A program made the translations under genes and the position numbers. A stretch of DNA of 64,000 nucleotides from an uncultured Fibrobacterota bacterium (lineage in GTDB: Bacteria; Fibrobacterota; Chitinivibrionia; Chitinivibrionales; FEN-1185): NCBI GenBank assembly GCA_963753345.1, contig CAVWBU010000016.1, positions 197,150 to 261,149 on the forward strand, in the 5' to 3' direction. Shown piece after piece: positions 1,596 to 60,028 of this stretch. The stretch's first letter is position 1, and each line of letters opens with the position of its first letter. Under the pieces are notes generated by a model. It had not been told where the DNA came from, did not search any database, and saw nothing but the letters and a program-made list of their open reading frames with translations.

Positions 1596-1747
1596 TGGGC
1601 GTTCCCCTCCCCCTCGTCAAGATTCGGGGTCGGGTCGGCCCTCCTTCCGGTCTCGGCCTTTGGCCTCGGGCCGCCTGCCACAAAGGCCCTGTGGGCCGTG
1701 GTCAGGCGGCACCGCGCTCCAGCGCGGCCTCCAGTCCTGCCTAACGC
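1596..1747 (+). repeat. Structured intergenic repeat, module A only (locus 1)
   Basis: tgggcgttcccc...ggtcggccctccttccggtctcggcctttggcctcgggccgcctg...caggcggcaccgcgctccagcgcggcctccagtcctgcctaacgc; close match to the copies at 42268 and 44163. Confidence 0.9.
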
Positions 1748-1861
1748 TTGGCAGAAGGGTATTTGCACATTTGCTCTGTTCGCTGCTGCACTAACCGAGC
1801 GACATTTCTCATTGTCAATCAACAATCAATCTCATCAGCAAATCCTTGACTGCGATTGCAA

Positions 1862-3481
1862 CTACTTTGAATTCCATGATGCCGACTGGGTTACTGTCTG
1901 GACCGGCGAATCGTCCTGATAGGAAACGACCACCGAATCCCCGTCCTGCACGGATATGAACCCCGGCCGTGAAGTCCCTGTTGTAAATCCGACCGTGGCG
2001 ATGAAATTTCTGATCGTCCCGCCCGTCACCCGTAAGGTGTCCTTGATGCCGACAGGGTCTTTCCGGCTTGCGATACCGACCACTGCCGTGCTGTCGGCAA
2101 TATCGTCGTCGCTCATGTTGATCGTCATCGCGCTGCCGGTCCCGTGGTATGCGGCCGAATCGAGGAACATCGTGGCGAGCACCGGCAGCCAGATGCAGGC
2201 CGGGGGCGCTATGTCCTGGGCCGGGGTCATGTCGTGATAGACAATCGTGATCGTGTCGGCTGCCGAGCCCGTCACGGCAAGCACGCTGTCGTGCACCGAG
2301 GCCTTGAGGGAAAACCAGATGTGCCCCATAAAGTCTCCGGCAGACCCTTCGACGGCATGTAAAGCGACCTGGAACCCTGTCTTGTCCCTCACGCTGGCAA
2401 CGCGCACAAGAACGGTTGAATCAGTGACGTCGGAATCCCAGACATGGATCGAGAGCGGCCTCACAACACCAAGAATCGGCGATCCGCCCGGCTGCACGAT
2501 GCCCGCAACACCGGTCCACGTCGTTGAAACGGAATCGACCCGCGCCGGGGATGATTCCGTGTAGCAGGCCGACACGACATCGCCGTCCCCGACCCTTAAG
2601 AGCCGTTTCGCGGAATCGGAATGCGTTATGGAAAACCACACGCTGTCGGAAAAGGTGCCGGCGGCTCCCGTCACCTTCGCCAGCCCCACGGTTATTCCCG
2701 CCGCGTCAGTGCCGCTTCTAACCTTTACATAAGCGAACTGCCCCGCGAGGCTCGAGTCGACCACGGTGATTACCAGCGGTACGATGCAGCTCTGGTAGGA
2801 GCCATTGTCAAATGAGATGATTCCGGCATTTCCGGAGGAGGAGGCGAGCAGAAAGTCGTTTGCACCCACATACGAAGAAATCGGCTTGCGCGCGACGGTG
2901 TAACCGGTTGCCGTTACAATAATGGTGTCGATTGCAAGGGCTGCAGATTTCGATAAGGCGCCGGACAAACCGTTACCAGCAATTCTTGATAACCCGTACC
3001 CATGGTCGGTATTGCCATCAAGCATCTTGAAAACAAAATCGGCGCTGCCGATCCTGAGTTTCACAAAACATAAGAGTCCAGCCGAAGTCCTTTTCCCGAA
3101 TGGATTGAACCGATAGTTGCCGCATTCCAGTTTCCGTTCGACGGCGGGGGCGATGGTCCGGCCTAGAAGATCGCAGACGTCAATGCGCACCGGCTGGCCG
3201 GCAACGGAAATCCCGAAAAATACGCTTCCTCGTTTGGCTACCGGCCGCTCTGCAGGTGAAACTCCGCCGTGAACAAAAGGTCCCACGCCCGAGCCCTTAA
3301 GCGCGTATCCGCCCGATGAATCGGTCGTTGTTGACAAAGGCAGCCCTTTCAGGGCCACCACCGCGCCTGCGATCCCCCTCAGTGAGGCCGAATCCCTTAC
3401 TGTGCCCGTGAGGTTGACGGATTGGGGAAAGGCGAAGGACAAAGCGCCGGCAAGGAAAATGATAGCGATGCTATTCTTCAC
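1862..3481 (-). CDS. Secreted protein: carboxypeptidase-regulatory-like N-terminal domain plus three ~105-aa beta-rich repeats
   Basis: Likely GTG start at 3481 (VKNSIAIIFLAGALSFA signal peptide). VNLTGTVRDS..IAGAVV motif. Three repeats of I.V.DSD....V.V.S..D..G....L..V.G....F...VWFS...V.DGD.V...Y. Confidence 0.75.
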   Translation of the reverse strand: MKNSIAIIFLAGALSFAFPQSVNLTGTVRDSASLRGIAGAVVALKGLPLSTTTDSSGGYALKGSGVGPFVHGGVSPAERPVAKRGSVFFGISVAGQPVRIDVCDLLGRTIAPAVERKLECGNYRFNPFGKRTSAGLLCFVKLRIGSADFVFKMLDGNTDHGYGLSRIAGNGLSGALSKSAALAIDTIIVTATGYTVARKPISSYVGANDFLLASSSGNAGIISFDNGSYQSCIVPLVITVVDSSLAGQFAYVKVRSGTDAAGITVGLAKVTGAAGTFSDSVWFSITHSDSAKRLLRVGDGDVVSACYTESSPARVDSVSTTWTGVAGIVQPGGSPILGVVRPLSIHVWDSDVTDSTVLVRVASVRDKTGFQVALHAVEGSAGDFMGHIWFSLKASVHDSVLAVTGSAADTITIVYHDMTPAQDIAPPACIWLPVLATMFLDSAAYHGTGSAMTINMSDDDIADSTAVVGIASRKDPVGIKDTLRVTGGTIRNFIATVGFTTGTSRPGFISVQDGDSVVVSYQDDSPVQTVTQSASWNSK

Positions 3482-3555
3482 AGATGTTTTCCGGCAAAAG
3501 AAATCTGAACGATGATAAGGTATTTGATGATGAAATCCTCTTTCGCTTTTCCATT

Positions 3556-3592
3556 TGACCTCACCCCCGGCCCCTCTCCTATGGGAGAGGGG
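3556..3592 (+). repeat. REP-like palindrome, CCTCACCCCC-CCCTCTCC/GGAGAGGGG type
   Basis: tgacctcacccccggcccctctcctatgggagagggga; a second copy lies at 38741-38778. Confidence 0.75.
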
Positions 3593-3661
3593 AGCAGCAT
3601 CCTCGCATGCTCTCCGAATTTTGCGTGGGATGCAGATGTCTTTCTTATCCAACAACTTTCC

Positions 3662-3812
3662 GTGGGTGCCCCGCAAGCAGTGCATATTCTTGCAGCCAGC
3701 TTTTCATGGGGGTCACCCAGGAGGGGGTAGCGGAGGACCAGACGCGCATGTCAGGATTGCTGATTTGTAAATTGGCGCGGCCGGGCCGGAGCGAGGGGGA
3801 AACTTCCCCCAC
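3662..3812 (+). repeat. Structured intergenic repeat, module B only (locus 2)
   Basis: gtgggtgcccc...gggggtcacccaggagggggtagcggaggacc...gggccggagcgagggggaaacttcccccac. Confidence 0.9.
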
Positions 3813-3833
3813 TTAAAACATCTAAATTCTATA

Positions 3834-10058: not shown

Positions 10059-10072
10059 CCACGATGCCAGCG

Positions 10073-12735: not shown

Positions 12736-12777
12736 TTACCGGGCTCCTGTACATGCACCAAAATGAATTTATTTCAT

Positions 12778-13163
12778 GTGGGGGAGGTTTCCCCCTCGCT
12801 GCGGCTCGGTCACACCACTTTACAAGTTAGATTTTCGATCATGCATGACCGAGCCTCCGCTACCCCCTCTTGGGTGCACCCCAAGTGGAAGCGGTTGCAA
12901 GCATCAAACACCTGTGTGGGGCACCCACCAGCGACTGTGGCAATAAAAATCGGCCCGACAGATTACCCAACAAAACGTTAGTGAAAGAAATCAAAGCCGG
13001 CAATCATCCTCTGCCCGCGCGCCAGGCAGGACTGGAAAAATGGTCCCGCTTGAGGCGGGATGCCGCCCGGACCCGCCGCTACTGCGGCATAGGACCGTGG
13101 CGGCCCGAGGCCAAAGGCCGAGACCGGAAGGACGGCCGCCGCCGCAAAGCGGCGGGGCGCCCA
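12778..13163 (-). repeat. Structured intergenic repeat, complete A-linker-B (locus 3)
   Basis: Reverse complement: A from 13163 (tgggcgccccgccgc...cctgcctggcgc) to ~13017; B from 12928 to 12778 (...gagggggaaacctcccccac). Confidence 0.9.
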
Positions 13164-13185
13164 TTTCCTTTTATTATTCTTGTGA

Positions 13186-13221
13186 CGCGGCCGGGCTGGA
13201 GCGAGGGGGATACCTCCCCCA
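13186..13221 (+). repeat. 3' fragment of module B
   Basis: cgcggccgggctggagcgagggggatacctccccca. Confidence 0.8.
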
Positions 13222-13245
13222 ATATGAAATTGCCTTTTATCTATA

Positions 13246-13915: not shown

Positions 13916-14084
13916 TGGGCGTTACCCCTTTTGGAGTGGCATTCTATCAATGCCACTCCAAAAGGGGTCGGCTCTCCCTCCGGGCTCAGCCTGGCGGCCT
14001 CGTTGCCGCCTGTCCCTAACGCCTTCGGCGAGGGATCAGGCGTCAATCCCGCTATGGCGGGACCGCTCCGGTCCTGCCTAACGC
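13916..14084 (+). repeat. Structured intergenic repeat, module A only, with expanded first hairpin (locus 4)
   Basis: tgggcgtt, then a perfect 20-bp hairpin at 13924-13968, then ...tcccgctatggcggga...cctgcctaacgc. Confidence 0.85.
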
Positions 14085-14276
14085 GCCCAAAAAGTAGATT
14101 GGGCCCGGGCGCAGCTTGGCCAAGGCATGATTCAGCCAGGTCGGTACGTACGCTCAGGTGGATAGGGACGGATTCTACAGCAGCAGTCACTTTGGTTTTT
14201 CACAAGAAAGAATTTTTATTTCTTTTTTGATCGTTCGCGCTGGTGAAGAGTGGTGGATTTTACAGCGGCAGTCACT

Positions 14277-19379: not shown

Positions 19380-19767
19380 TGGGCGCCCCGCCGAAGACGG
19401 CGGCGGTTCTCCTTTCGGGCTCGGCTATTCGCCTCGTTGCCGGACCGCCCTAGTCGCCTGCGGCGAGGGTCGGCCGGCAATGCGCTCTGGCGCACCCTTC
19501 AGTCCAACCTGGCGCAGCGGCATCAGAACTCTATTCAGTCAACTGTCTTCCTTACGCCAGGCAGAGTCTTTAATAAGTCAAAAGCAACATTTTTCTATAT
19601 GAACTTCTCAACTACTCTCCGTGGGTGCCCCCACACAGGAGTCTGGTTCTGCAACTGCATCCACTTGGGGGTCACCCAGGAGGGGGTAGCGGAGGACCGG
19701 TCGCGCGCATTGGAATGCTTGTTTGTAAAGTAGCGCGACCGGGCCGCAGCGAGGGGGATACCTCCCT
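19380..19767 (+). repeat. Structured intergenic repeat, complete A-linker-B (locus 5)
   Basis: A 19380-19515, linker ctattcagtcaa..cttacgcca, B 19621-19767; fills the gap between two convergent genes. Confidence 0.9.
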
Positions 19768-19800
19768 CCTTGCGTGCTTTTCTTATACGTCAAATACTAC

Positions 19801-27694: not shown

Positions 27695-27784
27695 CCAGAC
27701 TTTCTTTTCACCAACTTTCACGCCAAACTTCTCAACGTTTCAACTCTTTGCCTTTTTAACGCATTTTCTTTTCAACTATTCTCC

Positions 27785-27933
27785 GTGGGTGCCCCCACAC
27801 CAATGCTTGGTTCTGCTACCGCTTCCACACGGGGGCTACCCGCGAGGGGGTAGCGGAAGACCGGCGCGCGGTTGACAATACACACAAATGTTACCCCGCG
27901 CGCCGGGCTGAAGCGAGGGGGATACTTCCCCCC
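27785..27933 (+). repeat. Structured intergenic repeat, module B only (locus 6)
   Basis: gtgggtgcccccacac...gggggctacccgcgagggggtagcggaagaccggcgcgc...gagggggatacttccccc, preceded by a tcaac-rich tract. Confidence 0.9.
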
Positions 27934-27954
27934 TTGCATGCTTCATCATCTTTC

Positions 27955-30900: not shown

Positions 30901-33900
30901 CGTAACGGACTGGTCCTTAAAGTTCACCGTGTCGGTCGCAAGGCTGTACCAGACGCCCACCGAGTCGACCCGCGACGTGTCGATGCTGTTGGCGTTGTCG
31001 AGATAGATGCGCGCAGTGTCGTCGGGGAGGTACACGCCCGAGATGAGGAGTGGGTTGACAATGGGCATTGTGTCGCGCATGAGGACCTTGGCGCCGTTGC
31101 CGCTGTCGAAGGGCGTGATCTTCTTGTCGGTCCAGAGAATGCCCGTCATGAGGCCGTAGACGCTGTCGCTGCCGGTGAGGCCGGGCACGGCCACGGTGTC
31201 GGCGAACGAGGCCCCGGCGGCGCGCAGCGCGGCCGCCGCATAATACTTGATGAAAGCCGACTGCGAAGGCGTCTGCGGCCATGCCGACACCGCGTACCAG
31301 AGGCCTATGGAATCCGCGGACACGGATGCCGACGGCGGCGTTATCGCGTTGTATCCGGTGAGCCTGATGCGTATCTTCTGCGGCGAAACGTACGACCCGG
31401 TCATCTGGATGGGATTGGCGCCCGGGTTGTAGGCAAAGATCTGCGACGACGCGGTATCGGCGCCGCCGGGCCCGGTCACGGCAAGACGCACCGTGTAGGT
31501 GCCTGCCTGGGTGAAGGAATGCGTCGGGTTCTTCGAGGTCGAATCGGCCGTGCCGTCGCCGAATTGCCAGATCCTGCTTGTAAAGTTCCCTGTTGACGAA
31601 TCGTAGAACGAAACCGCGAGGGGCACCTGGCCCGAGGCCGGAACTGCGGAAAAGGCCGCGTGCACTTTTCCGTAGACAATCACCAGGGCCACGGCGCTCG
31701 TCACCGGCTGGCCGCAGGCGGCGCTCACCACGCAGTGATAATGCGCGCCGCTGTCGGCCGTCTGCGCCACAAACGCATAGGAGGCGGCTGTCCCGGCCGC
31801 TATCGCGGTAAACACGGTGTCGGTTGCCCCCTTCCTCTCCCACCGGTACGAAAGCGACGTTCCGGTCGCGGTGACGCCGAACGTAACGACCGTGCCCGAA
31901 GCAACGGTGTCGTTGGCCACGATCCACGCCGTGATCGCCGGGGGGTCGCACACCGTGAGCGTGACCGCCGGGGAAATGATGGAGCCGCACTTGCTGGTGA
32001 TGGAGCAGTGGAACTGGAGCCCGTTGTCCGATGCTTTGGCGGTCCTGACGTACGCGGCGGAGGTCGCTCCGGAGTCGTTGGTCCACACGTGGCCGTCGGC
32101 GCTCTGCTGCCACTGATATCCTATGTTTGTCCCGGCGACGACGACCCTGAAGGTGGCGGTTCCGCCCGTCACCACACTGGTGTCCTTAGACTGGCTGGCA
32201 ATTGACGGAGGAGAACACACCGTCAGGGTCGCCGCGGTTGAGGAATCCTTCCCGCACCCGTTCTGGATGGCGCACCGGAACCTGGCATTGTTGTCCGCTG
32301 CGGTCGCAACGAGCTGGTAGGTCGCCGTGGCCGCCCCGGTCCCGCCCGTCACGTTCGCCCAGGTGACGCCGTCCGCGCTTCTCTGCCACTGGTACACCAG
32401 CAGATTTCCCGCGGTGGAGATGCCGAACGTCGCCGTGTCCCCGATGTTTTTGTCCTGGTTGCCCGGCTGCGACACCACCTGCGGCGGCGTGCACACGGCA
32501 AGCGCCGCGCTGTTCGAATTTGCAGGAACGCCGCAGCCGTTGGAAACCGTGCACCGGAAAAGCCAGCCGTCCTGGTTCGACGCGGTTGTAAAGGTGTACG
32601 CGGCGGTTGTCCCGCCCGGGGTCACGTTGGTCCACGTGCCGCCGGCGTTTGAGCTCGACTGCCACTGGAACGACGGCGCCGGGTTTCCGCTCCCGACAAC
32701 CGAAAATGTCGCATTCTGGCCGGCCACGGCATTCTGGTTGACGGGTTGCGTGGCTATTGAAGCTGCAGTGCAAACGCCGATTGAAACAATGGTCGAATAA
32801 AGCTGGCCGCAAGGATTTGTGATATTGCATCTGAACTGGGCCGTGGAGTCTCCGGTGGCAACCGTAAAACTGTAGGAAGCAGTGGTTGCACCTGTCCCGG
32901 CAGTCACATTGGTCCACGTCGCCGCGCCGTCATCGCTTCTCTGCCACTGGTACGAAGGGGAGGTCACCTCTGCGGCAAGCGCCAGGCTGAACGACGCCGT
33001 CTCTCCAACCTGCTTGCCCGGCTGCGACACCGGCTGCTGGGTTATGGCAGGCGGCGTGCATACCGAAAGCGTTGCCGCCGTCGAAGTGGCGTTGAAGCAG
33101 GCAGTGGAAACGACGCACCGGTATTCCCACCCGTTCTGGCTTGTCGCTGTTGCAAAGGTCAAGACCGGAGTGATCGCACCGGCCACGTTGTTCCAGGTGC
33201 CGCCGCCGTCAATGCTGTTCTGCCACTGGTACGAAAGCGACGGCGTGCCGGTGGCTGCAACAGTGAACGTCGCCGTGTGACCGGCCGTGTCGCTTATGTT
33301 AACAGGATTCGCCGTGATCACGGGCTGGGAACAGACCGTGAGCGTCGCGGAAGCGGAGACCGCGGCGCTGCCGCACCCGTTGGACGCGCTGGCGCGGTAG
33401 AGGTATCCGTTCTGGGTCGCTGCCGTGGAAAAAACATAGGTTGCGGCTGTGGCGCCCGGCACGTTGTTCCATGTCGTCCCGTTGTCCGTGCTGTTCTGCC
33501 ATTGGTAATTGATAGTTCCGCTGCCGCTCGCCGCAGCCGTGAATGTCGCGTTGGAACCGCTGTTGACATTCTGGTTCGCCGGGTTCGCGGTGATCGCAGG
33601 CGGCGTGCAGACGCTGAGCGTGGCCGGAGTCGAGTACGCGATGGTCCCGCAACCCGGTACCGTTGCGCCGCAATGGTATTTATACCCGTTCTGGCCTATT
33701 CGCGGCAGTAAAGCTATACGCTTGGCGAGCCCGCGCCGCCGATGTCGTTGAACGTGTTCCCGCCGTCGGTGCTCACCTGCCATTGATAATAGAGACCCGT
33801 TCCGCCGCTCGCCGCAGCGGTGAACGTGGCTGTCTGGCCGGAAATCACGCTCTGGTCCGAAGGATTCGTGGTGATCGAGGCGGCAACGCAGACGGTGAGA

Positions 33901-36900
33901 GATGCGGCATTGGATGTTGCGCTTCCGCCCACGCACGCATTGGTGACGACACAGTGGAATTTTGCGCCGTTGTCGCTTCCCGCGGTTGTAAAGGAGTACG
34001 ACAAGGTGTTCGCCCCGTTCCCGATTGTCACGTTGTTCCAGGTGTTTCCGCCGTCTATGCTTTTTTGCCATTGATAAGCGGGACTCGTCACGTTTCCGGG
34101 GATCGTAATCGAATACGTTGCCACCGCGCCCGCGATGCCCGACCAGTCGGACGGCTGCGTGGCAATGGACGGCGGCGTGCAAACGGTGAGCGTGACTGCG
34201 TTGGAAACCGCGGGAGTGGCGCAGCCGTTTGCGACCAGGCACTTGTACTGGTTGTTGTTGTCCGTCGACGCCGTCGTGAAACTGTAGGTGGCCGAGGCTC
34301 CGCCGGACGGCACGTCGCCCCAGGTCACGCCGTTGTTGGGGCTGTACTCCCATTCATACGTGAACGCTCCGCTCCCGATGGCGGCCACGCTGAAGGAGGC
34401 GACTTGACCGGCGGTAACGCTCTGGTTGGAAGGCTGCGTGCTTATTGCCGTGGGCGTGCAGACAGCGAGTATCGCGGCATTTGTATAGATAAGATTGCAC
34501 GTGTTGAACACCTCGCACATGAACTGCGCGCCGCTGTCGCTCTGCGCGGTCGTAAATGAATACGTCGAATTTGTCTGCCCGGTAAGATTGTAGAAGGTGT
34601 AACCTCCGTCGTCGCTGCGCTGCCATTGCAGCGAAATGTTGGGCCCTGCCGCGGATATTGTAAAGGAAGCAGTTTGCCCTGCCAGCACGCTCTCGTTTTG
34701 GGTGTTAACGGTCACGGACGGCGGAGTGCAGACGTTGCAGACGGCAGCAGACGAGGTGGCATTGCCGCAGGTGCCGGTTACCTGGCAGCGGCAAAAAACG
34801 ATCGCGAATCGACCATTAGGTCGGTTGTAAAGGTATAGAGTCGGGGTAGTTCGCCGGTACCGTAATGCGAAATGGCTCCACGGCTTTCCGGTCCCGGGAG
34901 CTATACTGCCATTGATACGTGAGACCGGTGCCCGTCGCAGTCACGCTGAACGTGGCGTTCATCCCAGAAGGCACGGTATCGGTCTGGGGCTGCACCGATA
35001 TCGAAGGCGCCACGCAGGCCGGAGAAACGGAAAGTGTGGCATAGTTGGACGCAACAGTGCCGCAGGCATTGGTCACGTTGCACTTGAACCATGAACCGTT
35101 GTCCCCGATCACCGTTGCGAAGGTGTATGTTGTCGCCGTGCTCGCTCCCGCCGCGTTGTACCATGAGGTGCCGCTGTTGTCGCTGCGCAGCCATTGGTAT
35201 GAAGTGGCGCCTGTTGCGGTAACGCTGAAGGTCACGTTGTTCCCGGCACTCGTGGCCTGATTCGTGGGCTGGACAGTGATGGTGGCCGTCGGGCACAAGA
35301 CCGTGAGTGTCGCCACATTCGATGTTATGGTGCCGCATGCACCGGTCACAACACATTGAAACTGGGCGCCGTTATCCGCAGGATATGCAGTGGTAAAGCT
35401 GTATGTTGCCCCAGTTGCGCCGCCGATGTTTGTCCAGGTTCCGGTGTTCCGCTGCCATTGATATGTGAGACTGGAGCCGGTGGCTCCGACGGTGAAGGTG
35501 GCGTTCTGGCCCGCGTTGACACTTGTGTTGGAAGGCTGAGTGCCTATCGCGGGTGCAGTGCAGGTGACGGTGAGCGTAGCCGCGTTCGACGTTGCGTTTC
35601 CAAAGGAGTTGCTCACATAGCAGCGGAATTGTGCGCTGTTGTCCGCAAGAACCGTTGTGAAACTGTAGTTCGCGGTGGTGCCGCCTGATCCGCCCGAGAC
35701 ACTGTTCCATGTGGTGCCGCCGTTATTGCTGCGCTGCCATTGATAAGAGAGACCGCCGCCGGAGGCGACGACTGAGAAGGACGCAAGACTGCCCACACTG
35801 ACGGATTGGGACGAGGGTTGTGTGGTTATTGTGGGGATAGTGGTTGCTATCGGGGTAAAAGCAATCCATGTAGGGTTGGTTTGCTGGGACTGGTAGCAAA
35901 GATTCATCCAATCAGAAGAGCGGACAACGTTTGAAATTTCAACCTCATTGACTTGCCCTTGAAAGAACTGACCCCAGTTTGCATAATATTTTGATCCGAT
36001 CTGGTTGTAGTAATAGGTAGCTGCACCGAGAGGCGCATTATTTGTTGTTATTGCTCGAGAAACCCCATTTACATAAATAGCGGCAACTCCTGCGGTGGTC
36101 TTTGTGACACCTACATGCATCCAAGATGTGGATGGATTGGGGAAACTACCGTCAGTAGTCCAATCGTCATGGAGAGCATCTGAATTAGCACCTCTGCTCA
36201 AATTCAAATTACTGGTAGCATTGTATCGGTTGAAATCTATATACGAGCCACCAGTAGCCGAGCACATACTAATAATATTATCCTGATTACTGGTTCCGCT
36301 GGACCATACCCATGCGGAATACGTGATGTTTGGGGCAGTGGCAAAATTAATCCCATTGCCAAGATTTTTGGTTGCTTTTGTACCCGTGGTATAAAAATTA
36401 TTGTTAGTGGTTGCAATTGGAGTTCCCGTAGTATACCCGGTACCACCGGAAACTATGGAAATGGCTCCAACTCCTATTGCATTATTTCCACCGTTCGTTG
36501 TATTTCCGGCTGTCACTTTCACCGTTGCATTACCTCCGCCTCCAGAAATTGTCAAGGTATCACCAACGAAATATCCAGTACCTGCAGCCACAATAGTTGC
36601 TCCAGTCACAACACCTCCAGCAGCCGTAATATTCAAGGTGCACCCGGTTCCTTCACCGGAACAAGTATTAAAAGAGACGCCGGTAACAGCACCTCCGCCG
36701 CCCACAGAAGTAACATTGACAATTCCTCCATCTCCCCCGGACACGAGCAGTCGGTCACCTACGACATAGCCGCTTCCACCGGCTATTGGTGTAGTACTGA
36801 CTCCAGTTATAGACCCTCCCGCATTGACGGCGGTAACGTTTACCGTGCATCCGGTTCCAGAGGCACTTCCAAATATCGCAATGTATTTGCCAAGCAACCC

Positions 36901-37485
36901 GTTGCCAAGATTTTGTCCATAGGCAATTTGTCCAGAAACCTGATCGCCGCTGACCATATTATTTCCAGTGCCTGGATACACTCCAGTCGCATCAGCGTAC
37001 CCGGCAAAATTAGTGTTACCCTGCTCATTAAGGTGCCATACGCCCAAAAATCCGTTCGAACTGTTGAATACGTTGGCCCCGTTCGATTGGCTCGTCGCCC
37101 CCGTATTCCCCCAGTACATCTTGAACTGCGTCTGTCCGCCATTCGTAGTCCCGACCACATTGTCAATCTTCACCCATATCTCCGCGACCTGGTTCGCGTT
37201 GTCCCAGCGCTCTATCTGATACGGCTGCGGGGTCGTTCCGTCCATCTTGGAAAAACGGATGTCCGAACCGTCCGAATTGGCCTGGCTGAATATGCTGGGG
37301 GAGAAAGTGCTGCTTGTCAACCGTATGAGTACCGGGAAGTTCGCCTGGTCGGTGGCGACGCCGGTCGGCGCCGTAAGGGTCACGATATACGCGTGCAGCC
37401 ACGGCGAAAAATCATCGGCCCGCGCCCAACCGCTCACAAGCAGCACTGCTGCTGCCGCGGCAATCAATCTTCTGTCAATCTTCAT
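27955..37485 (-). CDS. Giant adhesin-like protein (~3,170 aa if rejoined): DUF2341-like + LamG + ~15 Ig-like repeats + PKD + FN3-like + FlgD/T9SS-CTD-like tail; frameshifted near 34800-34900 and 33690-33725
   Basis: Signal peptide; NFPVLIRL, DGSDIRF, YQIERWD...AEIWVK; GVWHLNE; FQGQVNEVEISNVVRSSDW; repeated I..QP....V..G..ATF.V.A.G....YQWQ...W; F.DSSTG...W.FGDG (PKD); YPNPF...IYDLRGR..W..WD.R...G..V.AGVY. ORF pieces 34816-37518, 33714-34715 and 27955-~33690. Confidence 0.85.
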
Positions 37486-37782
37486 TTCCCCCCACCTCAT
37501 GCTTTGCTCAGCCGACACTCTGCCACGGCCTGCTTGCGTTTTCGCAACCTTCTGGCGCGCTCATCAGCACCCATTCCAGCGCAAAAAGTCACCGTTAGAC
37601 ACGTTGCCCCGCTTCAATCCATATTATACAGCAGATCTCGAAAAAATACCGCACTTAATCGCATAAACCGAAAAATACAATATGCCTTTTTCAACCGCAT
37701 AACTAACAACCACCACACATCCTATGGTATGCGGTTGCCAAATTGACCACAATTGTTCAAATGTAAATATTAGCAATAAATC

Positions 37783-38261
37783 TGGGCGTTCCCCCATCTC
37801 AATTGTAGATTGTAGAATGAAGATTTGAAATGCGAAATGCGAAGACCAACCAGAATCTCTTTTCAATCTAAAATCATCAATCTAAAATCTACAATTAAGA
37901 GTCCGGGCGGCATCCCGCTGAGGCAACAGAATTCTATTCAGTCAATCACTTCTTCTTGCGCCAATTGGCATTCGAAACGCAGTATTCAGCGCATTCTCTC
38001 TATATTTCAAACTTTCCAACGTTTCAACTTTTCAACGTTTCAACGCTTTTTCTTCTAAGCTCCTCAACTTTTCAACTACTCTCCATGGGTGCCCCCACAG
38101 CGGAGTACGGTTTAGCCACTATCTTTTCTCGGGGTGCACCCAGGAGGGGGAGCGCCCGCCCAACAGGAAGGGCGGATAGCGCCGGAGGACCGGACGCGCA
38201 TGTTCAAATTACTGGTTTGTAAAGCGGCGCGGCCGGGCCGCAGCGAGGGGGAGCCTTCCCC
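37783..38261 (+). repeat. Structured intergenic repeat, disrupted A + linker + B (locus 7)
   Basis: A start tgggcgttcccc; an AT-rich inverted heptamer tract replaces the A core; remnant tccgggcggcatcccgct; linker ctattcagtcaa..cttgcgcca; B 38085-38261. Confidence 0.85.
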
Positions 38262-38778: not shown

Positions 38779-38941
38779 GAAAAGAGACAAAGTGACAAAG
38801 GGCAAACGACATAATGGAAGGTGCAAAGCACCACTACCAAACCCTCAAGGAACGTAGGGACAAAGTAATTCTTTGTTTCCAACTTTTCAACGCTTCAACT
38901 TTTCAACGTTTCGACGCTTTTTCTTTTCAACTGCTCTCCTC

Positions 38942-39086
38942 GGGTGCCCCCACACAGGTGTTTGATTCTTGCAGCAGGCTCTTCTTGGGGTGCACCCAGG
39001 AGGGGGTAGCGAAAGACCGGCGCGCGATTGGCCTGAGTTACGAATTAGGGGCGCGCCGGGCTGAAGCGAGGGGGAACCTTCCCCCA
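38942..39086 (+). repeat. Structured intergenic repeat, module B only (locus 8)
   Basis: gggtgcccccacac...ggggtgcacccaggagggggtagcgaaagaccggcgcgc...gagggggaaccttccccca. Confidence 0.9.
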
Positions 39087-39109
39087 CCAATAATTAATTT
39101 GGGATTTCT

Positions 39110-42180: not shown

Positions 42181-42267
42181 ACTAATAATATCTTCTTTTA
42201 CAAATAGTAATTCTTGTTAAATCGATTAAATAATTGACAATATACAATATTTAATAACTTATAAAGC

Positions 42268-42693
42268 TGGGCGTTCCCCTCGCCTTCGTCAAGTCTCAGG
42301 CTCGGGTCGGCCCTCCTTCCGGTCTCGGCCTTCGGCCTCGGGCCGCCTCGGCCCTAGGCCGCAGTAGCGGCGGGTCCGGGCGGCACCGCGCTCCAGCGCA
42401 GCCTCCAGTCCTGCCTAACGCGCGGCAGAAGAAATCTATTCTGTAAAGCTTTATCTTTGCGCCAGCCTGAATTCTCAAGGAGCAAAACAACGCTTTCTGC
42501 TTGAACTGCTCGACTCCTCAACTTATCAACCTTTCAACTATCTCTCGTGGGTGCCGCCACAGCAATGTATGGTCTTGCAGCAACTTTGTCAAGGCGGCCA
42601 CCCAGGAGGGGGTAGCGGAGGACCGGCGCGCGTTTGACAATATATTGAAATGCTTAGCGCGCACCGGGCCGCAGCGAGGGGGATACCTCCCCC
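42268..42693 (+). repeat. Structured intergenic repeat, complete A-linker-B (locus 9)
   Basis: A 42268-42421, linker ctattctgtaaa..tttgcgcca, B 42547-42693. Confidence 0.92.
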
Positions 42694-42712
42694 GCCATAA
42701 TTTTCATTTTTA

Positions 42713-43998
<1,286 letters not shown>

Positions 43999-44162
43999 AG
44001 ATCAAAGGTTCCTTTTTCTTCGGGGACCTACGTGCAAAGTATGAAGAGTGTTGACGAAACTTACTAAAAATAGTCTTTTGATGAGGAGGGCTGGAATGAA
44101 TAAGTAGCATGGCGATTCCAGATTCTGGTGGGGGCACCGCTTCGCGAATTACAGATAAAGCC

Positions 44163-44526
44163 GGGCGTTCCCCTCGCTGCGCTCGGGTCGGCCGTCCTTC
44201 CGGTCTCGGCCTTCGGCCTCGGGCTGCCTGCCACGAGGGCCCTGCGGGCCGTGGTCAGGCAGCACCGCGCTTCAGCGCGGCCTCCAGTCCTGCCTAACGC
44301 GCGGCAACCGAAGTCTATTTCGTAAACTACTATTTCTTGCGCCAGCCGGAGTCCCTGCGTGGAATTTTAACCTATCATCAAATCTCCGTGGGTGCCCCCA
44401 ACCGAAGCATGTTTCTCGCAAATAAACTGACTTGGGGGCCACCCAGGAGGGGGAGCGCCCGCCCAACGGGAAGGGCGGAAAGCGCCGGAGGACCGCAGGG
44501 CCGGAGCGAGGGGGAGCCTTCCCCCA
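44163..44526 (+). repeat. Structured intergenic repeat, complete A-linker-B (locus 10)
   Basis: A 44163-44300; B 44388-44526, with a cgccc..gggcg insert and a short gca-loop arm. Confidence 0.92.
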
Positions 44527-44586
44527 CATGAATACTTTTTCAGCTTTGTGTGACTTTCCATCTCCTTCCCGCCTAAATATTATTTT

Positions 44587-45033
44587 TTGATGTCCTTCAG
44601 GTTCAACGCACACTTCCCAAAAAGGACCCATCACTTGCAAACCTTCCCCCCAGTCGAATCCCTTCTTCCCCACCGGCCTCCCGCCATTGTCGTGGATGCC
44701 ATTGTCGCATTTGAAAAGGGAAAAATCAAATGTGCTCGAACGGTGCGGCCAAACGAGCACTACGGCCCGGGCCTCTCGCCCGAAGGCATCGTGGAGTTCT
44801 GCGCGCAGGCAGCCATCCTGTGCGAGGCTATGGAATCGGGCGGCGCCAGGAAACAGGGCGTGCTTGCGGGCATCGACGATTTTGTCTTTTCCGGCAGCGC
44901 AGCTTCGGGCGACAAACTTGAAGCGGAAATAACCGTGAAAACAAAATTCGGCAACCTCGGCCTGTTCGAATGCAGCGCGACGGTGAACGGCGCCCCGTTG
45001 GCCCACGGCTTTATCAAGGCGGCGCAGTCGTGA
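44587..45033 (+). CDS. Hot-dog-fold 3-hydroxyacyl-ACP dehydratase (FabZ/ApeP-like); true start possibly TTG 44635
   Basis: LLPHRPP..VVD, GIVEFCAQA, GVLAGID.F. Confidence 0.8.
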   Translation: MMSFRFNAHFPKRTHHLQTFPPVESLLPHRPPAIVVDAIVAFEKGKIKCARTVRPNEHYGPGLSPEGIVEFCAQAAILCEAMESGGARKQGVLAGIDDFVFSGSAASGDKLEAEITVKTKFGNLGLFECSATVNGAPLAHGFIKAAQS

Positions 45034-49955: not shown

Positions 49956-50340
49956 TCTATCGACCGATCCGGGCTTGCGGCAGGCCTTGACAACCGCTCT
50001 GTCTGACCTGATCGTGTCACCTGACAAGCGCTCCATCAACGCGGCATTTCTTCTTCCGGCAGACTCCCCTGTTTTCGCGGGCCACTTTCCCGGCATGCCG
50101 GTGATCCCGGCCGTGTATCAGGTGGCGCTATGTACAGAGGCTGTCAGGCGCATAGGGTCGTACGAGTTGAAAGGAATTTCCAAATCGCGGTTTTCGAAGA
50201 TGTGCATACCGTCGATCAACTACGATTTAAAAATATCGCTTGCGGAAAAGGGAGCAGAGGTTGAAGCGACGTGCTTGATTCACGAGGCGAACAAGAAGGC
50301 GTTGTGTTCGAAGATTGTTTTGATATTTAGGAAGAAGTGA
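49945..50340 (+). CDS. Hot-dog-fold dehydratase (ApeI/FabZ-like)
   Basis: VFAGHFPG.PVIPAV motif. Confidence 0.8.
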   Translation: MRNNLSTDPGLRQALTTALSDLIVSPDKRSINAAFLLPADSPVFAGHFPGMPVIPAVYQVALCTEAVRRIGSYELKGISKSRFSKMCIPSINYDLKISLAEKGAEVEATCLIHEANKKALCSKIVLIFRKK

Positions 50341-50346
50341 TAGGTT

Positions 50347-50732
50347 TGGGCGTTCCCCTCGCTCCACTCGGGTCGGTTTTATTTGAGACAAGATAGGAGT
50401 TGGGCGCCCCGCCGCTTCGCGGCGGCGGTCCTCCTTTCAGGCTCGGCCTTCGGCCTCGTTGCCGCCTGTCCCAACCGCCTTCGGCTAGGGATCAGGCGGC
50501 AATGCGCTCCAGCGCACCTTCCAGTCCGACCTGGCGCGCGGCAACGATAATTTATTCTGTCAATTAGTCTTTCTTGCGCCATCCCAGCATTCAACTTTCA
50601 ACTCGCAACTTTCAACTCTCTTTCTCGGTGCCCCCGCAGCAATGTGTGGTCTCGAATCTGCTTTATCAAGGGGGCTACCCAGGAGGGGGTGACGGAGGAC
50701 CGCAGGGCCGCAGGCAGGGGGATACTTCCCCC
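50347..50732 (+). repeat. Structured intergenic repeat: extra A 5' fragment plus complete A-linker-B (locus 11)
   Basis: Fragment tgggcgttcccctcgctccactcgggtcgg at 50347-50376; A 50401-50537; B 50627-50732; lies between convergent genes. Confidence 0.9.
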
Positions 50733-50743
50733 ACAAGAAGACT

Positions 50744-52357
50744 CTATTCTTTTATCACTTTCGGGCGTGTGTACTTTCTTATCAGAAACAATCCCACTGC
50801 CATTAAAACAATAAATACCGACAATAGCACCGGCCAATCACCAACCTTAGTGTACAATGTAGGAATCCGATACACGCTCAGGCCTCCCGACAGACATGTG
50901 CGCGTGTAAATATCGGTCTTCTTTGTAATCCTGCCATATTGATCGACGAACATGGTAATTCCCGTGTTGGCGGCCCTCGCGAGCGGCACGCCGTTTTCTA
51001 TGGTCCTCAGGCGCGCCATGGTCGCGTGCTGGAACGCGCCCGAGCTCCTGCCGAACCAGCCGTCGTTCGTGATGTTGACAAGAAGGTTTGCGCCGCGGAC
51101 CACGCGCTCGCGCACCGAGCCCGGGTAGATTATCTCGTAGCAGATGAACGGCGCGGCCCTCACCGTTTTCCCCATTGCAAACACCACCGGGTCCCTGCCC
51201 GCCTTGAAATCGGCCTGTCCGAGGTTCACGCGGCTCAGGATGGGAAACACGCCCGTGAACGGCAGCGTCTCTGAAAACGGAACAAGGTTCATTTTGCAGT
51301 ACGGCGAGAACTTCTGCGTGACCGGATCGAGAAAGAACGCCGTGTTGTACACGAAATAATCGCGGCCGTTGTTGCGCGGCGCAGGGTCCCAGTGGAGCGC
51401 GCCCACAATCATGGGAACGCGAATAATATTGAGCCATCCAATCACCCGCTCGACAAGCTGGGGTCGCCGGAGCAGATAACACAACAGCGCGCTTTCGGGC
51501 GTGATCACGAGGTCCGGTTTGGCAAGCGCTGCCTCCTTGAGGAGCGATTCCATGACGGCAAACGACGTGTCAAGCGACGTGTTGGTCCAGTGGTTCTGGT
51601 CGATATTCCCCTGGAGCAGGGCGATCTTCACGGGATTGACATCAGGCGAAGGCCCCTGCTTCATGCGGAAGTATCCCCACACCGAAACTGCCGCGAGCAC
51701 GATCGCAAACACCGGCAAGCCGAGGCGGACGGCGCCTTTCCGCTTGAGACTGCTCAGGAATTTCCACGCGAGCATGTTGCCGAGAATCACGGCAAAGGTG
51801 AGGCCGAACACGCCGGTTATCGAGGCAACCTGTGCCAGCGGCAGCAGCGGCGCGAGCGCATAGCCCGCGAAGTTCCACGGAAACGAAATTTCCCCGAGCG
51901 TTCGCTGATAATCCAGCAGGACCCAGATCGACGGAAAAATGATTACGGCAAGACTGGGAAATTTCTTTATGGTAAACCTGAACAGCATTCCGAGCAAAAG
52001 GTAATACAGGCCTTCGTACAGACAAATGATCAGCACGCCGATCACCACAAGGTGCCACAGGCCTTCCGGGACCACGAACGCGATCCAGTAGAACTGGCAC
52101 CCGCACGCCACGAACCCAAAGAGATAGCTGCGCCACGCCGCGCTTGAGCGCTTCGGCGCCAGGCTCACCAGAAACAGAGGCAGGCAGGCGAAGAAGCTTA
52201 ACAAGGGGAAAAACGTGAAAACAGGATGCAAAAGACCGTTGAACGGCGGCATGGCCAGCGCGTAGAACACGCCGCCTAAGCTGGCGATCCAGAGACCGTG
52301 CTTAGAAGCAGAAATATTTGTAAACCGGGAGAGAATAGAGCTTGTTGATGAGAGCAC
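50744..52357 (-). CDS. lnt: Apolipoprotein N-acyltransferase; start approximate
   Basis: FPWN..GY, QGNI, PESA, K.NLVPFSE, ICYE, NITNDGWFG.S.G..QH, RAANTG. Confidence 0.93.
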   Translation of the reverse strand: MLSSTSSILSRFTNISASKHGLWIASLGGVFYALAMPPFNGLLHPVFTFFPLLSFFACLPLFLVSLAPKRSSAAWRSYLFGFVACGCQFYWIAFVVPEGLWHLVVIGVLIICLYEGLYYLLLGMLFRFTIKKFPSLAVIIFPSIWVLLDYQRTLGEISFPWNFAGYALAPLLPLAQVASITGVFGLTFAVILGNMLAWKFLSSLKRKGAVRLGLPVFAIVLAAVSVWGYFRMKQGPSPDVNPVKIALLQGNIDQNHWTNTSLDTSFAVMESLLKEAALAKPDLVITPESALLCYLLRRPQLVERVIGWLNIIRVPMIVGALHWDPAPRNNGRDYFVYNTAFFLDPVTQKFSPYCKMNLVPFSETLPFTGVFPILSRVNLGQADFKAGRDPVVFAMGKTVRAAPFICYEIIYPGSVRERVVRGANLLVNITNDGWFGRSSGAFQHATMARLRTIENGVPLARAANTGITMFVDQYGRITKKTDIYTRTCLSGGLSVYRIPTLYTKVGDWPVLLSVFIVLMAVGLFLIRKYTRPKVIKE

Positions 52358-57354: not shown

Positions 57355-57446
57355 TGACAAATATGCAATCTACGGAACGTGCGTCCCGGGAAAGCGCACC
57401 GGCATTTCCGGCACGCGCCGCCCCTGCGAAGAAGGGAGATCCGGTT

Positions 57447-57776: not shown

Positions 57777-57830
57777 AAACGACTCCTCCCCGGGCCCGCC
57801 ATGTGCACCGGAAGGGCGACCAGCCCGCCG

Positions 57831-58133
57831 TCACCCCCGCTTTTGAAGCGCGTCCAGAACCGCGGCCCGCAGTTTCTGCCAGCCCGCCGGATCGTTCCTG
57901 TATCGATTGACAAAGGCTTTTGCCGTTGCCCCGTTTATTCCCGTAAGCGCGCACAGGCGGCGATAGCGCTGGGCCGCCTGCGTGCGCGAAACCGTCTTGT
58001 CGGTGGCAAGCAATTCGATGCCCGCAAAGTAGGAAACGAGATTCTGGTACGGCGGCGCTATATCGGCGGCACGAACGGCGCCGATCGCGCAGATCAGAAA
58101 TAGTGCGGCCAGCATCAGAAGGTTCTTTTTCAT
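57831..58133 (-). CDS. Small exported hypothetical protein
   Basis: MKK + hydrophobic signal peptide; co-directional with trxA. Confidence 0.6.
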   Translation of the reverse strand: MKKNLLMLAALFLICAIGAVRAADIAPPYQNLVSYFAGIELLATDKTVSRTQAAQRYRRLCALTGINGATAKAFVNRYRNDPAGWQKLRAAVLDALQKRG

Positions 58134-58208
58134 GCTGTATAAAAATGCTTGGTTCGGGACAAAGAGTCAAGATGATATAACCGTGTTTACAAGAGAAAGA
58201 TTTAAAAT

Positions 58209-58388
58209 TGGGCGTTCCCCCGCTTCGCGGGGTCGGTTCTCCTTCCGGTCTCGGGCGTTGCCCTCGGGCTGCCTGCCACGAGGGCCCTGCGGGCCGTGGC
58301 CAGGCAGCATCCCGCTATAGCGGGACCTCCAGTCGCTCCTAACGCGCGGCCGAAGAAATCTATTCAGTTAAGCTTGTCTGTGCGCCAA
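58209..58388 (+). repeat. Structured intergenic repeat, module A plus linker motif, no B (locus 12)
   Basis: tgggcgttccccgcttcgcgggg...cctaacgc (58345), then ctattcagttaa..tgtgcgcca. Confidence 0.9.
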
Positions 58389-58493
58389 CCTGATTTACAA
58401 AGGAAATTGTCCGGGCATTTTTTTTTGCTTCTCAACTCCTCAACCACTCAACTTTCTTAAATCTGTCAACCGTCAACTTTCAACTTTTAACTC

Positions 58494-59501
58494 TTAACTT
58501 CTTCCATACAGCTCCTCCAGCCCCCTCACCACCGCTTCGGGCCTCACCTTCCTCATGCATTTCCGCGACCCGGTGAGACACACGTTGCCGCCGTGCGCGT
58601 GACAGGGCCTGCAGAACCGGGCAGCCTCGAACACGCGGAAAGCAGGTTCGCCATAGGGAAAAAAACCGAAATGCGACGTCGTCGGGCCGTAGATGATGCC
58701 GGTCTTCACGCCGCAGGCCCTTGCAATATGCGAGAGTCCCGTGTCGTTGCCCAGGGCGACCGTACATTGCGAAACGAGACACGCCGTTTCGTACAGCGAC
58801 AGCTTTCCCGCGGAGGAAACACAGCGGTCGCCTACGGCGCTTTTCATCCTGTCGGCCGCGGCAATGTCCGAGGGCCCGCCGGCGATGAGCACGTCCCATC
58901 CCTTTGCGGCGAAATACCTGCCCACAAAGGTGTAAAACTTCGCGGGCCACTCCTTGTTCTTCCACGCGCTGAACGGAAACAGGGCGATGCGCGGCCGGAC
59001 CACCCCGCTTTCCGGGAGGATACCGAACGCGGTCCCGCATTTTTGTTTGTCAAGAATGAGGCGCGGCGCGGGAAATGCGCCCGGCGCGCCTTCGAACCCG
59101 CATGCCCGGGCGTACCGCGCGACCACGTTGTCTCCCTTGGGGTACAGACTGGCCCTAAAAAGCAGCAACACCGCGCGCTCAAAATGCCGCTTGCCCACGA
59201 CCGAAGCCTTTTCCAACGACACGAGGTCCTTCCGCAGAGAAAGGCTTCTGCGGCTGTTCTGCAGGTCGATGATCCTGCTCCACGCCGCGCCGGACAGCAC
59301 GGCCGCGGCTTCGCGCTCGCCGCCCTTGTCAACCGCAACCACCCGTGCCAGGCGCGGGTCGGCCGAGAAAAGTCCGGCGTATTTCCTGTCCGTTGCAAAC
59401 CAGAGGTTCGCCGTCGGAAACGAGGACTTCAGGTATTCGAAGACGCTCGCGGCAAGGACCACGTCGCCCATCGAGGAGAGACGGATGATGAGGATTTCCA
59501 T
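58494..59501 (-). CDS. Glycosyltransferase family 9 (LPS heptosyltransferase-like)
   Basis: ILIIRLSSMGDVVL, DLQ, KEWP, GKLSL, GNDTGLSHIA, YGPT. Confidence 0.92.
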   Translation of the reverse strand: MEILIIRLSSMGDVVLAASVFEYLKSSFPTANLWFATDRKYAGLFSADPRLARVVAVDKGGEREAAAVLSGAAWSRIIDLQNSRRSLSLRKDLVSLEKASVVGKRHFERAVLLLFRASLYPKGDNVVARYARACGFEGAPGAFPAPRLILDKQKCGTAFGILPESGVVRPRIALFPFSAWKNKEWPAKFYTFVGRYFAAKGWDVLIAGGPSDIAAADRMKSAVGDRCVSSAGKLSLYETACLVSQCTVALGNDTGLSHIARACGVKTGIIYGPTTSHFGFFPYGEPAFRVFEAARFCRPCHAHGGNVCLTGSRKCMRKVRPEAVVRGLEELYGRS

Positions 59502-59604
59502 GATTTTTTCGTTCCGAAAAATACCTTCCGATAGGAGCGCCGTGGGGGCAAAATATATTTTGATTTGAGTTATTTCTACCAAGCTGAAGAAAGGATTTTT
59601 TCAT

Positions 59605-60028
59605 GTGGGGGAAGTTTACCCCGTCGGGTACTTCCAAGGGTCGTCCCCCTTGCTCCGGCCCTGCGGTCCTCCGGTGCTTTCCGCCCTTCCCGTTGGGCGG
59701 GCGCTCCCCCTCCGGGGTGCACCCCTTGAAGGTGTAGTTGCAAGAATCAAACACCTGTGTGGGGGCACCCAAGGAGAGGTGTGGATTGATGATTGCGGAA
59801 TGTGGATTAAAAAAACCTTAGGTGGTTATTTTAAGATTCTGGTTGGCGCAAGAATATACCTTGACACAATAGATTTCCCCCTGCCGCGCGTTAGGTGGAC
59901 CGGAGTGGTCCCGCCGTAGCGGGATTGCCGGCCGACCCCGGCCGAAGGCCATCGGGGCGGTCCGGCAACGAGGCCGAACGGCCGAGCCCGTAGGGAGACC
60001 GGCCCGAGCGCAGCGAGGGAAACGCCCA
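59605..60028 (-). repeat. Structured intergenic repeat, complete A-linker-B (locus 13)
   Basis: Reverse complement: A 60028-59888, linker ctattgtgtcaa..cttgcgcca, B 59771-59605 with a ~23-nt insert in the terminal hairpin region. Confidence 0.9.

Follow-up and report, generated by a model that had tools for sequence, protein, structure and literature searches.

The question raised by this locus is whether the long, branched repeat that fills the intergenic gaps of a Fibrobacterota genome is one mobile element or a composite of parts with histories of their own. The locus is a stretch of 64,000 nt (the window; G000:C16:197150-261149, contig CAVWBU010000016.1) of G000, a 4.52-Mb metagenome-assembled genome (MAG) of an uncultured Fibrobacterota bacterium (GCA_963753345.1; 55 contigs, 94% complete). 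It is GC-rich (~58%), with gaps that were more AT-rich in a composition scan. The initial annotation had reported a two-part repeat, A-linker-B, at 13 loci. Three profiles were cut from an alignment of seven complete copies, i.e. A (187 positions), B (98 positions) and C (38 positions), the last comprising a terminal GGGGGA-NNNN-TCCCCC hairpin and its GC-rich lead-in. With nhmmer these profiles matched 10 A, 10 B and 11 C modules in the 64-kb window, which make up 13 loci and one solo C; every annotated locus was recovered by repeat finding and by profile scans (Table 1). On rough open reading frame (ORF) calls, the window has 15 gaps of 250 bp or more, and modules were present in 12 of these. 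The description as non-coding, stem-rich repeats filling most large intergenic gaps was thus supported. The view of A-linker-B as one element was not, and two repeat families were found instead, module A on the one hand and modules B and C together (BC) on the other.

In the earlier view the composite was a single non-autonomous element of 360-480 bp moving as a unit, with the A-only and B-only copies as truncated derivatives. This view was largely refuted and only a slight chance is now given to it. Pairwise divergences of A and B were uncorrelated among 176 composites (Mantel r 0.014; permutation standard deviation 0.015, maximum 0.05). Strong matches of A were restricted to the genus, whereas BC occurred throughout the phylum, and BC was common to orthologous sites at which A was different or absent. 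In the gap orthologous to window positions 42181-42725, genome G000 carries ABC and G002 a degenerate A with BC, while G004 has BC with another 5' module and G003 is empty (182 bp). Likewise, strain-variant contigs within the MAG shared BC on both alleles at 99% flank identity, with A, its tail and another repeat on one allele only. A block copied recently consisted of the A core only and ended at CCTGGCGC, before the tail and BC, and A alone was the commonest form (142 loci). Because the ranges differ, the divergences are uncorrelated and BC stays at sites where A differs, A and BC were regarded as two families.

Some observations do speak for a single element. Modules A, B and C kept an almost invariant order and strand in G000 (~195 ordered loci against ~3 exceptions), and one copy (window 12774-13222) is flanked by inverted C hairpins of ~38 nt. 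The nearest relative of A was among the five nearest relatives of B in 20 of the 176 composites, compared with ~5 expected, an excess due in part to duplicate strain contigs. The C hairpin was considered as a terminal inverted repeat, but this holds for that one window copy, in which the solo C at 13190-13222 and the C of the adjoining composite form the ~38-nt pair; the end profiles of the modules revealed no general terminal inverted repeat. A G-run at positions -60 to -20 was seen in only 71 of 362 A copies, belonging to two subfamilies. Since the two families have separate histories, the fixed A-B-C order needs another cause, and A probably prefers the position immediately upstream of BC, in landing or in being retained.

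Module A comprises ~185 nt and forms a GC-rich multi-branched fold, after which come a short hairpin and TTCAAC 7-8-mers in an array. The linker, previously taken for a spacer, turned out to be mostly the 3' tail of A itself, consisting of the short hairpin (CGGCATCCGCAA...) and 1 to ~7 tandem TTCAAC units of 7-8 nt, sometimes with other small GC hairpin modules. Densities of T[CT]AAC units per 100 nt were 1.6 after copies of A alone and 1.8 before B in composites, compared with 0.76 before BC alone and a background of 0.19 in other gaps. As the array is dense after A-alone copies too, it belongs to the 3' side of A. Module B and the terminal hairpin C together measure ~155 nt. They consist of a long B hairpin, an optional, variable middle hairpin and the terminal GGGGGA-NNNN-TCCCCC hairpin, and the stems are connected by two nearly invariant stretches, GGGGGTAGCGGARGAC and GGCYGNAGCGA. 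The median distance from A to B was 68 nt (5-75% range 27-102 nt) and that from B to C 36 nt, the latter varying with the presence of optional hairpins. On the 5' side the conserved edge was TGGGCG, with which A begins, and on the 3' side it was the C hairpin; purine-rich sequence precedes A and pyrimidine-rich sequence follows C. Loose ends of contigs in public DNA runs also marked element edges, at 42268, 44163 and 44525-44532.

Iterated nhmmer searches of the whole of G000 yielded 419 A, 277 B and 195 C matches, which were chained to 454 loci spanning 129,964 bp, or 2.9% of the genome; a BLAST search using the seven complete copies gave 470 loci. The 454 loci comprised A alone (142), ABC (131), AB (60), BC (53), convergent A pairs (26) and B alone (22). 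Module matches occupied 105,294 of 668,382 intergenic bp (~16%), and 380 of the 878 gaps of at least 300 bp contained a module. This abundance is far above chance expectation. The modules were also present in four other MAGs of the genus and in contigs from public DNA runs, and are therefore no assembly artefact. Many short contigs of G000 (among C1-C14, C17, C22, C25, C29, C33, C38-C39, C43-C45, C50-C51 and C53-C55) were 90-99.8% identical to parts of large contigs; they represent strain variation within the MAG, so that the copy counts are slightly inflated. No copy contained a credible ORF, as had been noted before: stems were conserved and codons were not. Naive ORF calls were overlapped by 232 single-orientation loci. 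ORFs of at least 300 aa were overlapped by at least 60 nt at 40 of 454 loci, and in the 12 largest overlaps, those listed, the element lay at an end of the ORF call.

The folds were investigated with two covariance models, R1 for A and R2 for BC, which gave 46 and 63 matches, respectively, in the window and 38 loci from relatives. Alignments to these models were used, since sequence-only nhmmer alignments misaligned the variable hairpins. For A, 89.2% of the cells were paired, compared with 36-46% when partners were slid, and 18 of 37 pairs showed changes on both sides. For BC, the values were 92.6% against 50-61%, with changes on both sides in 18 of 32 pairs. The covariation score was reached by 0 of 500 shuffles for either set, and the compensatory changes in both modules support the stems. 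In 52 distinct BC sequences from distant genomes, 93.1% of the cells were paired (56-68% when slid) and double changes occurred in 17 of 32 pairs. Their middle hairpin was paired in 99%, with changes on both sides in all five of its pairs; that the last hairpin does not vary among these sequences is so by construction, as the loci were picked with the core pattern. In the junction helix of the same sequences U-G was found in 46 of 52 and G-U in 47 of 52. Strand tests that required no predicted structure had a mixed outcome for the two modules. The given strand of BC was the more stable one in 66 of 80 copies (z -3.4 versus -2.5), and single mismatches in helices otherwise of Watson-Crick pairs only were G-T in 38 and A-C in 23 cases. 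At two positions of the outer B stem, U-G outnumbered every other pair (e.g. UG 47 versus CG 10). The conserved wobble pairs speak for the given strand as the one that folds in BC.

The two families differed in their phyletic range. In BLAST searches with complete copies, elements were found in four of the five other genomes of the genus (G001-G005) and hardly any outside it; the 99%-complete G003 yielded none. Three MAG records contained an exact 20-mer of B, in 42 stretches. Among 151 Fibrobacterota genomes, R1 matched strongly only in G000, G001, G002, G004 and G005, where all 16 scored candidates of each genome matched, and elsewhere gave three matches of ~35 bits. R2, by contrast, matched in 83 of the 151 genomes, including 48 of the 55 genomes of one family, which is probably Fibrobacter-like, judging from the Fib_succ_major domains encoded at one of its loci (L129). 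The core shared in distant alignments consists of the first hairpin, GGGGGTAGCGGARGAC, a variable second hairpin and GGCYGNAGCGAGGGGGA-NNNN-TCCCCC. The second hairpin measures ~10-100 nt and varies in sequence with its pairing kept. The exact core pattern was found in 42 of 151 genomes, and the reversed-pattern control in none; it occurred 70 times in G000, 34 times in G001, 10 times in G004, five times in G005, four times in G002 and 1-7 times in the other positive genomes. BC in G000, with its 277 B copies, is thus the local amplification of a three-stem motif distributed throughout the phylum. The core pattern with a short middle hairpin was also observed once among 2.9 million viral contigs (L130, 9743-9792).

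The repeats had been said to belong to no described family, and no match to a catalogued one was obtained here. The whole window gave no match to Rfam 15 at gathering score, and seven distant loci gave none at E up to 0.1. Positions 42200-44600, searched at E up to 10, gave only three chance-level matches of 17-18 bits, against cut-offs of 45-80. The core motifs were found printed in no paper and no literature description was found, in a comparison that covered PMC5737381 without its supplementary motif lists. According to that report, intergenic regions of Fibrobacteres were among those screened in it.

Comparison of orthologous sites, which had been proposed as a check, revealed filled, empty and opposite-strand states. 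At the site of the composite at 44163..44531 (orthologous gap, window 43999-44635), G004 carries A only and G005 an A on the opposite strand. The site of the composite at 50401..50738 (orthologous gap, window 50206-50775) is empty in G004 and holds an opposite-strand BC in G005. Strain-variant contigs with flanks of 94-99% identity also differed in their modules. The A copy at G000:C16:177895-178069 was absent from a 99%-identical allele; it matched a copy on C21 at 99.2% identity (132 nt) and one on C47 at 97.8% (139 nt). The shared block started ~35 nt before TGGGCG and ended sharply at CCTGGCGC, and records a recent event in which only the A core was copied. In four public DNA runs the short-read contigs ended at the repeats and none bridged an empty site.

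Gene context was determined after masking of the elements, for 402 single-orientation loci with two called neighbours. Co-directional genes enclosed 217 of these loci, convergent genes 98 and divergent genes 87 (background pairs 2138, 692 and 688). Between co-directional genes, ABC and BC loci were antisense in 73 and sense in 23 cases, while A alone was antisense in 34 and sense in 37. This bias points to a cost carried by sense-strand BC in operons. The 51 distant BC instances were classified by the direction of the 5' and 3' genes as opposite/same (15), opposite/opposite (14), same/opposite (11), same/same (6), not called/same (4) and opposite/not called (1). Their neighbours were unrelated and encode, for example, leucyl-tRNA synthetase, HsdM, Fic, an ORF6N protein and an acyl-CoA dehydrogenase fragment; a riboswitch-like tie to one gene was rejected on this ground. 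Simple scans for promoter- and terminator-like sites were without a consistent result at the elements. The last BC hairpin (P3) was likewise rejected as an intrinsic terminator, because its tail is not U-rich in distant genomes.

A mobilising enzyme was sought in six-frame searches of G000, a genome whose 94% completeness leaves absence not proven. The Y1 transposase domain (PF01797) was not found in G000, the control search being positive in 6 of 14 genomes; no RAYT/TnpA gene (RAYT, REP-associated tyrosine transposase; REP, repetitive extragenic palindrome), beside which copies were to be looked for, was thus found. Neither the TnpB domain (PF07282) nor reverse transcriptase (PF00078) was found in these searches, and the latter would be required for retroelement-derived repeats. 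One match to the rve integrase was obtained. Seven DDE_Tnp_1 matches corresponded to an IS5-like element (IS, insertion sequence) in four copies, one of them split in two, and to two single matches. The IS5-like element, of the DDE type, has 20-nt ends CTTAGAGCTTATCCATAAAT and lies at C18:84.6-85.5, C32:215.2-216.1, C49:51.1-51.9 and C35:54.6-55.3 kb; the copy on C35 is degraded and has an in-frame TGA, and a four-copy 'ORF' of G000 is antisense to its transposase. As a parent of the repeats this element was rejected, its AT-rich ends being unrelated to the modules. An autonomous parent of the form A...gene...BC was also looked for, and the 10 candidates held unrelated ordinary genes. Multi-copy proteins were considered as transposases as well, and reflected the redundancy of the MAG.

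The window had been said to contain no identifiable mobilising enzyme. This needs correction in one respect, as an IS110-family transposase of 356 aa (PF01548 and PF02371) is encoded at 62818-63888(-), in a stretch of low GC content (0.475-0.50). The gene is single-copy in G000 and does not co-occur with A across the genus: an 83%-identical ortholog was present only in G005 and distant relatives in G002, with none in G001, G003 or G004. It was therefore rejected as the mobiliser.

The best reading of the repeats is that they are trans-mobilised, non-autonomous structured elements. On balance it seems probable, with considerable room for doubt, that two independent families of non-coding structured repeats, arranged head to tail, were copied separately in trans, with A favoured upstream of BC and BC in sense direction purged. 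BC would descend from a motif kept at few copies, some of them at conserved places, in other Fibrobacterota, and in this Chitinivibrionales genus would have multiplied to a few hundred copies. A, whose strong matches are confined to the genus, would still be in the course of being copied. Each family would have reached new intergenic sites independently of the other, copied by an enzyme acting in trans whose substrate might be the folded strand and not a terminal inverted repeat. Module A would land or survive preferentially just upstream of BC, giving rise to the fixed A-B-C order, and selection would then purge sense-direction BC between co-directional genes. The data demonstrate the two families, how they fold, that their histories are separate and that copies are gained and lost between species and strains; the way of copying, the attraction of A to BC and any part played by the RNA are inferences. 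If this holds, a conserved structured motif of the Fibrobacterota is missing from RNA catalogues, and the cultured Fibrobacter succinogenes allows a direct test; one genus would show how such a motif turns into a genome-filling repeat occupying ~16% of the intergenic DNA. Abundant structured repeats without known mobilising enzymes would also imply that a new copying mechanism may await description. In practical terms, short-read assemblies of these organisms of peat and sediment are broken at the repeats, which can also be mistaken for genes.

Several findings weigh against separate copying in trans. No enzyme linked to the elements was found in the family searches of G000. All four strain-level pairs of filled and empty sites proved to be replacements of whole segments with breakpoints at module edges, where short-read contigs break at repeats, and no clean insertion or target duplication was visible in these pairs; allelic recombination therefore fits as well as transposition. 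The copies are old on average (nearest-neighbour distance ~0.13 for A and ~0.10 for B), unlike the outcome of a recent burst. Some BC-like copies occupy conserved places, e.g. the 3' end of the leucyl-tRNA synthetase gene in four Fibrobacter-like genomes, which looks like a stable functional rather than a mobile element. Module A was strand-symmetric, with 66 G-T and 59 A-C pairs at single mismatches, and its opposite strand was the more stable in 62 of 80 copies; in view of this lack of strand asymmetry, an RNA role of A is unsupported. The counts of changed pairs derive from model-fitted alignments and double changes are often shared by subfamilies, so that independent events are fewer than cells. 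Finally, the R1 and R2 genome scans scored only 16-17 candidates per genome, and copy numbers outside G000 are lower bounds.

The BC core might represent an undescribed class of functional nucleic acid, a three-way junction with the invariant joining strands GGGGGUAGCGGAAGAC and GGCUGNAGCGA, acting as a protein-recruiting or catalytic RNA or as a folded single-stranded DNA site for an enzyme; it would be kept at few places in most genomes of the phylum and in one genus would have become self-propagating and drawn A upstream. This extension is put forward tentatively, as a possibility with the weight of probability against it; if true, it would amount to a new structure-guided mobile system without RAYT, TnpB, reverse transcriptase or terminal inverted repeats. 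A rather unlikely explanation is that BC, and perhaps A, serve the host as RNA elements, i.e. as small RNAs or as cis-acting 3'-end or insulator structures, and were multiplied by duplication or recombination in the absence of a dedicated mobilising enzyme. Junction sequences that are nearly invariant across the phylum, conserved wobble pairs, a covarying middle hairpin, same-gene placement kept in several Fibrobacter-like genomes and the orientation bias of BC between co-directional genes would all agree with this. So would the finding that, of 47 distant instances, 30 have a 5' neighbour directed away from them, so that a transcript of BC would need a promoter of its own, as a small-RNA gene does. 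However, ~280 copies in one genus are far above the numbers known for sibling small-RNA families, all gap types are occupied near background proportions, and neighbouring genes are unrelated. Moreover, no consistent promoter- or terminator-like site was found at the elements, and no U-rich tail follows the last hairpin in distant genomes.

The breakpoints of the strain variants, which fall exactly at module edges such as the first base of the B stem where whole intergenic segments are replaced, would also fit folded-DNA recombination sites resembling attC or Xer sites, at which a site-specific recombinase exchanges intergenic or gene cassettes. Integron attC sites are marked by an inverse core and a core site, with an integron integrase close by. 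At locus L129, three copies of motif and gene fragment 6.7-7.3 kb apart bound different cassettes, and in PMC5737381 attC sites are described as being picked up as 'RNA motifs'. Most copies nevertheless flank ordinary housekeeping genes, no recombinase is linked to the modules (recombinase families were not scanned), and the conserved G-U pairs argue less for DNA than they do for RNA; this explanation is thus considered very unlikely. Least credible of all is a system of REPs or REPINs moved by a RAYT, or of palindrome-associated IS200/IS605 elements with TnpA/TnpB. The repeats are indeed intergenic, palindromic and abundant, and 26 loci consist of two convergent A copies, but neither PF01797 nor PF07282 was found when G000 (94% complete) was searched in six frames, REPs are shorter than the units by a factor of 5-8, and inverted pairs make up just 26 of 454 loci.

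Among known systems, the closest kinds are modular interspersed repeats, namely pneumococcal BOX elements and mosaics of REPs or bacterial interspersed mosaic elements (BIMEs); this is a likeness of design, and no homology is claimed. BOX elements of Streptococcus pneumoniae have the module layout boxA-boxB(n)-boxC. The features of the BOX design that were found here are a fixed module order with a variable middle, intergenic location and no coding capacity, and the two (for BOX, see PMC3049150) also share an interspersed distribution, strong folding and the lack of a transposase of their own. No sequence relation exists, however, and the modules described here are much larger (185 and 155 nt); their halves have separate histories and taxonomic ranges, and one half has few-copy relatives throughout the phylum. 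REPs are imperfect palindromes of ~20-40 nt, typically arranged as inverted doublets (REPINs), and the RAYT gene is usually flanked by them. Abundance, extragenic palindromic structure, mosaics, vertical persistence in a lineage and some inverted doublets are shared with REP/BIME and REPIN-RAYT systems (PMC3116915, PMC3337134). In contrast to these systems, no RAYT was found, the multi-branched units are 5-8 times longer and doublets are rare; there is also no cloud of identical 'master' copies, the nearest neighbours differing by ~10-13%. Miniature inverted-repeat transposable elements (MITEs), e.g. Correia/NEMIS and ERIC, are short, non-autonomous, structured elements derived from DDE insertion sequences. 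The modules resemble them in being intergenic and in the effects expected on neighbouring transcripts, but have no general terminal inverted repeats, no target duplication that could be seen and no parent IS sharing their ends. A RAYT, short palindromes typically in doublets, terminal inverted repeats shared with a parent IS, and TnpA or TnpB, as features of the REP/RAYT, MITE or IS200/IS605 groups, were not found. The BC core also recalls orphan RNA motifs such as HEARO, GOLLD, ROOL and Fibro-purF in its conserved junction nucleotides, covarying stems and lineage-restricted range (PMC5737381, PMC7668255). Unlike them, BC is multi-copy, tied to no single gene, amplified hundreds-fold in one genus and without an Rfam family.

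The loci of the window are given in Table 1. At the locus with the disrupted A, the 5' end of A starts at 37783 and is separated by an AT-rich insert from its 3' part (37903-37964), and an extra GC hairpin is present in BC. Window neighbours of the modules include genes for seryl-tRNA synthetase, a histidine kinase and Lnt.

Table 1. Modules A, B and C in the 64,000-nt window (window positions; bit scores are those of covariance models R1 and R2)
Feature	Position	Strand	Evidence
A alone	1596..1763	+	nhmmer E 3.8e-34; R1 171.8 bits
BC without A (B hairpin, optional hairpin, terminal C)	3646..3815	+	nhmmer B 3646-3738, C 3780-3815; R2 178.2 bits
Complete A-tail-B-C composite	12774..13164	-	nhmmer A 13002-13164, B 12854-12943, C 12774-12810; R1 136.2, R2 157 bits
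Solo C hairpin, inverted relative to adjoining composite 12774..13164	13190..13222	+	nhmmer E 3.4e-08
A alone, long variant of first hairpin	13916..14098	+	nhmmer E 1e-21; R1 116.2 bits
Complete A-tail-B-C composite	19380..19768 (A 19380-19560)	+	nhmmer; R1 174.7, R2 187 bits
BC without A	27768..27934	+	nhmmer; R2 167.6 bits
Disrupted A, then BC	37783..38261	+	alignment, nhmmer; R2 170.3 bits
BC without A	38923..39089	+	nhmmer; R2 162.7 bits
Complete composite	42268..42699 (A 42268-42465)	+	nhmmer; R1 190.4, R2 177.4 bits
Complete composite	44163..44531 (A 44163-44345)	+	nhmmer; R1 190.7 bits; R2 match
Complete composite, short form without optional hairpin	50401..50738 (A 50401-50582)	+	nhmmer; R1 168, R2 124.1 bits
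A alone	58208..58388	+	nhmmer; R1 182.3 bits
Complete composite, insertion in C-hairpin loop	59601..60029 (A 59843-60029)	-	alignment, nhmmer; R1 155.7, R2 117.6 bits

Other small repeats were observed in addition to A and BC. Tandem arrays of 7-8-nt units (TTCAAC, TGTCAAC and ACAAAGTG) adjoin GC-rich modules across G000, e.g. at window positions 38000-38065, and two further small hairpin modules recur in this genome, GATTGCTTCGC...GCTCGCAATGACA and CCTCACCCC...GGAGAGGGG. Structured repeats of a third family measure ~120 nt and contain two CCCCGNNGC...GCNNCGGGG hairpins; they were found at 66 loci of G000, 46 of them of at least 100 nt, and examples outside the window are C15:31688-31806 and C16:178130-178240. 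A further A-like module, starting with GGTGGGGGCACCGCTTCGCG, occurs at ~10 loci of G000 (e.g. G000:C2:5757-5915; window 44128-44147) and could also be detected in L012 and L014, at the site orthologous to window positions 42181-42725. Some A copies are preceded, at a distance of ~40 nt, by remnants of its first 20 nt.

At locus L129 of a Fibrobacter-like genome (G089:C19:24000-43904), a C-terminal acyl-CoA dehydrogenase fragment of 236 aa together with a BC-like motif is present three times, at intervals of 6.7-7.3 kb. The cassettes bounded by these repeats encode Fib_succ_major proteins, an AbiEii toxin and a PIN protein, and no integrase was seen. A repeat of another kind was observed in the window itself, where a protein of 2132 aa with Ig, PKD and FlgD-Ig domains (27955-34353, minus strand) is made of DNA repeats of ~276-282 nt, which recur in the adjoining ORF of 900 aa (34816-37518, minus strand).

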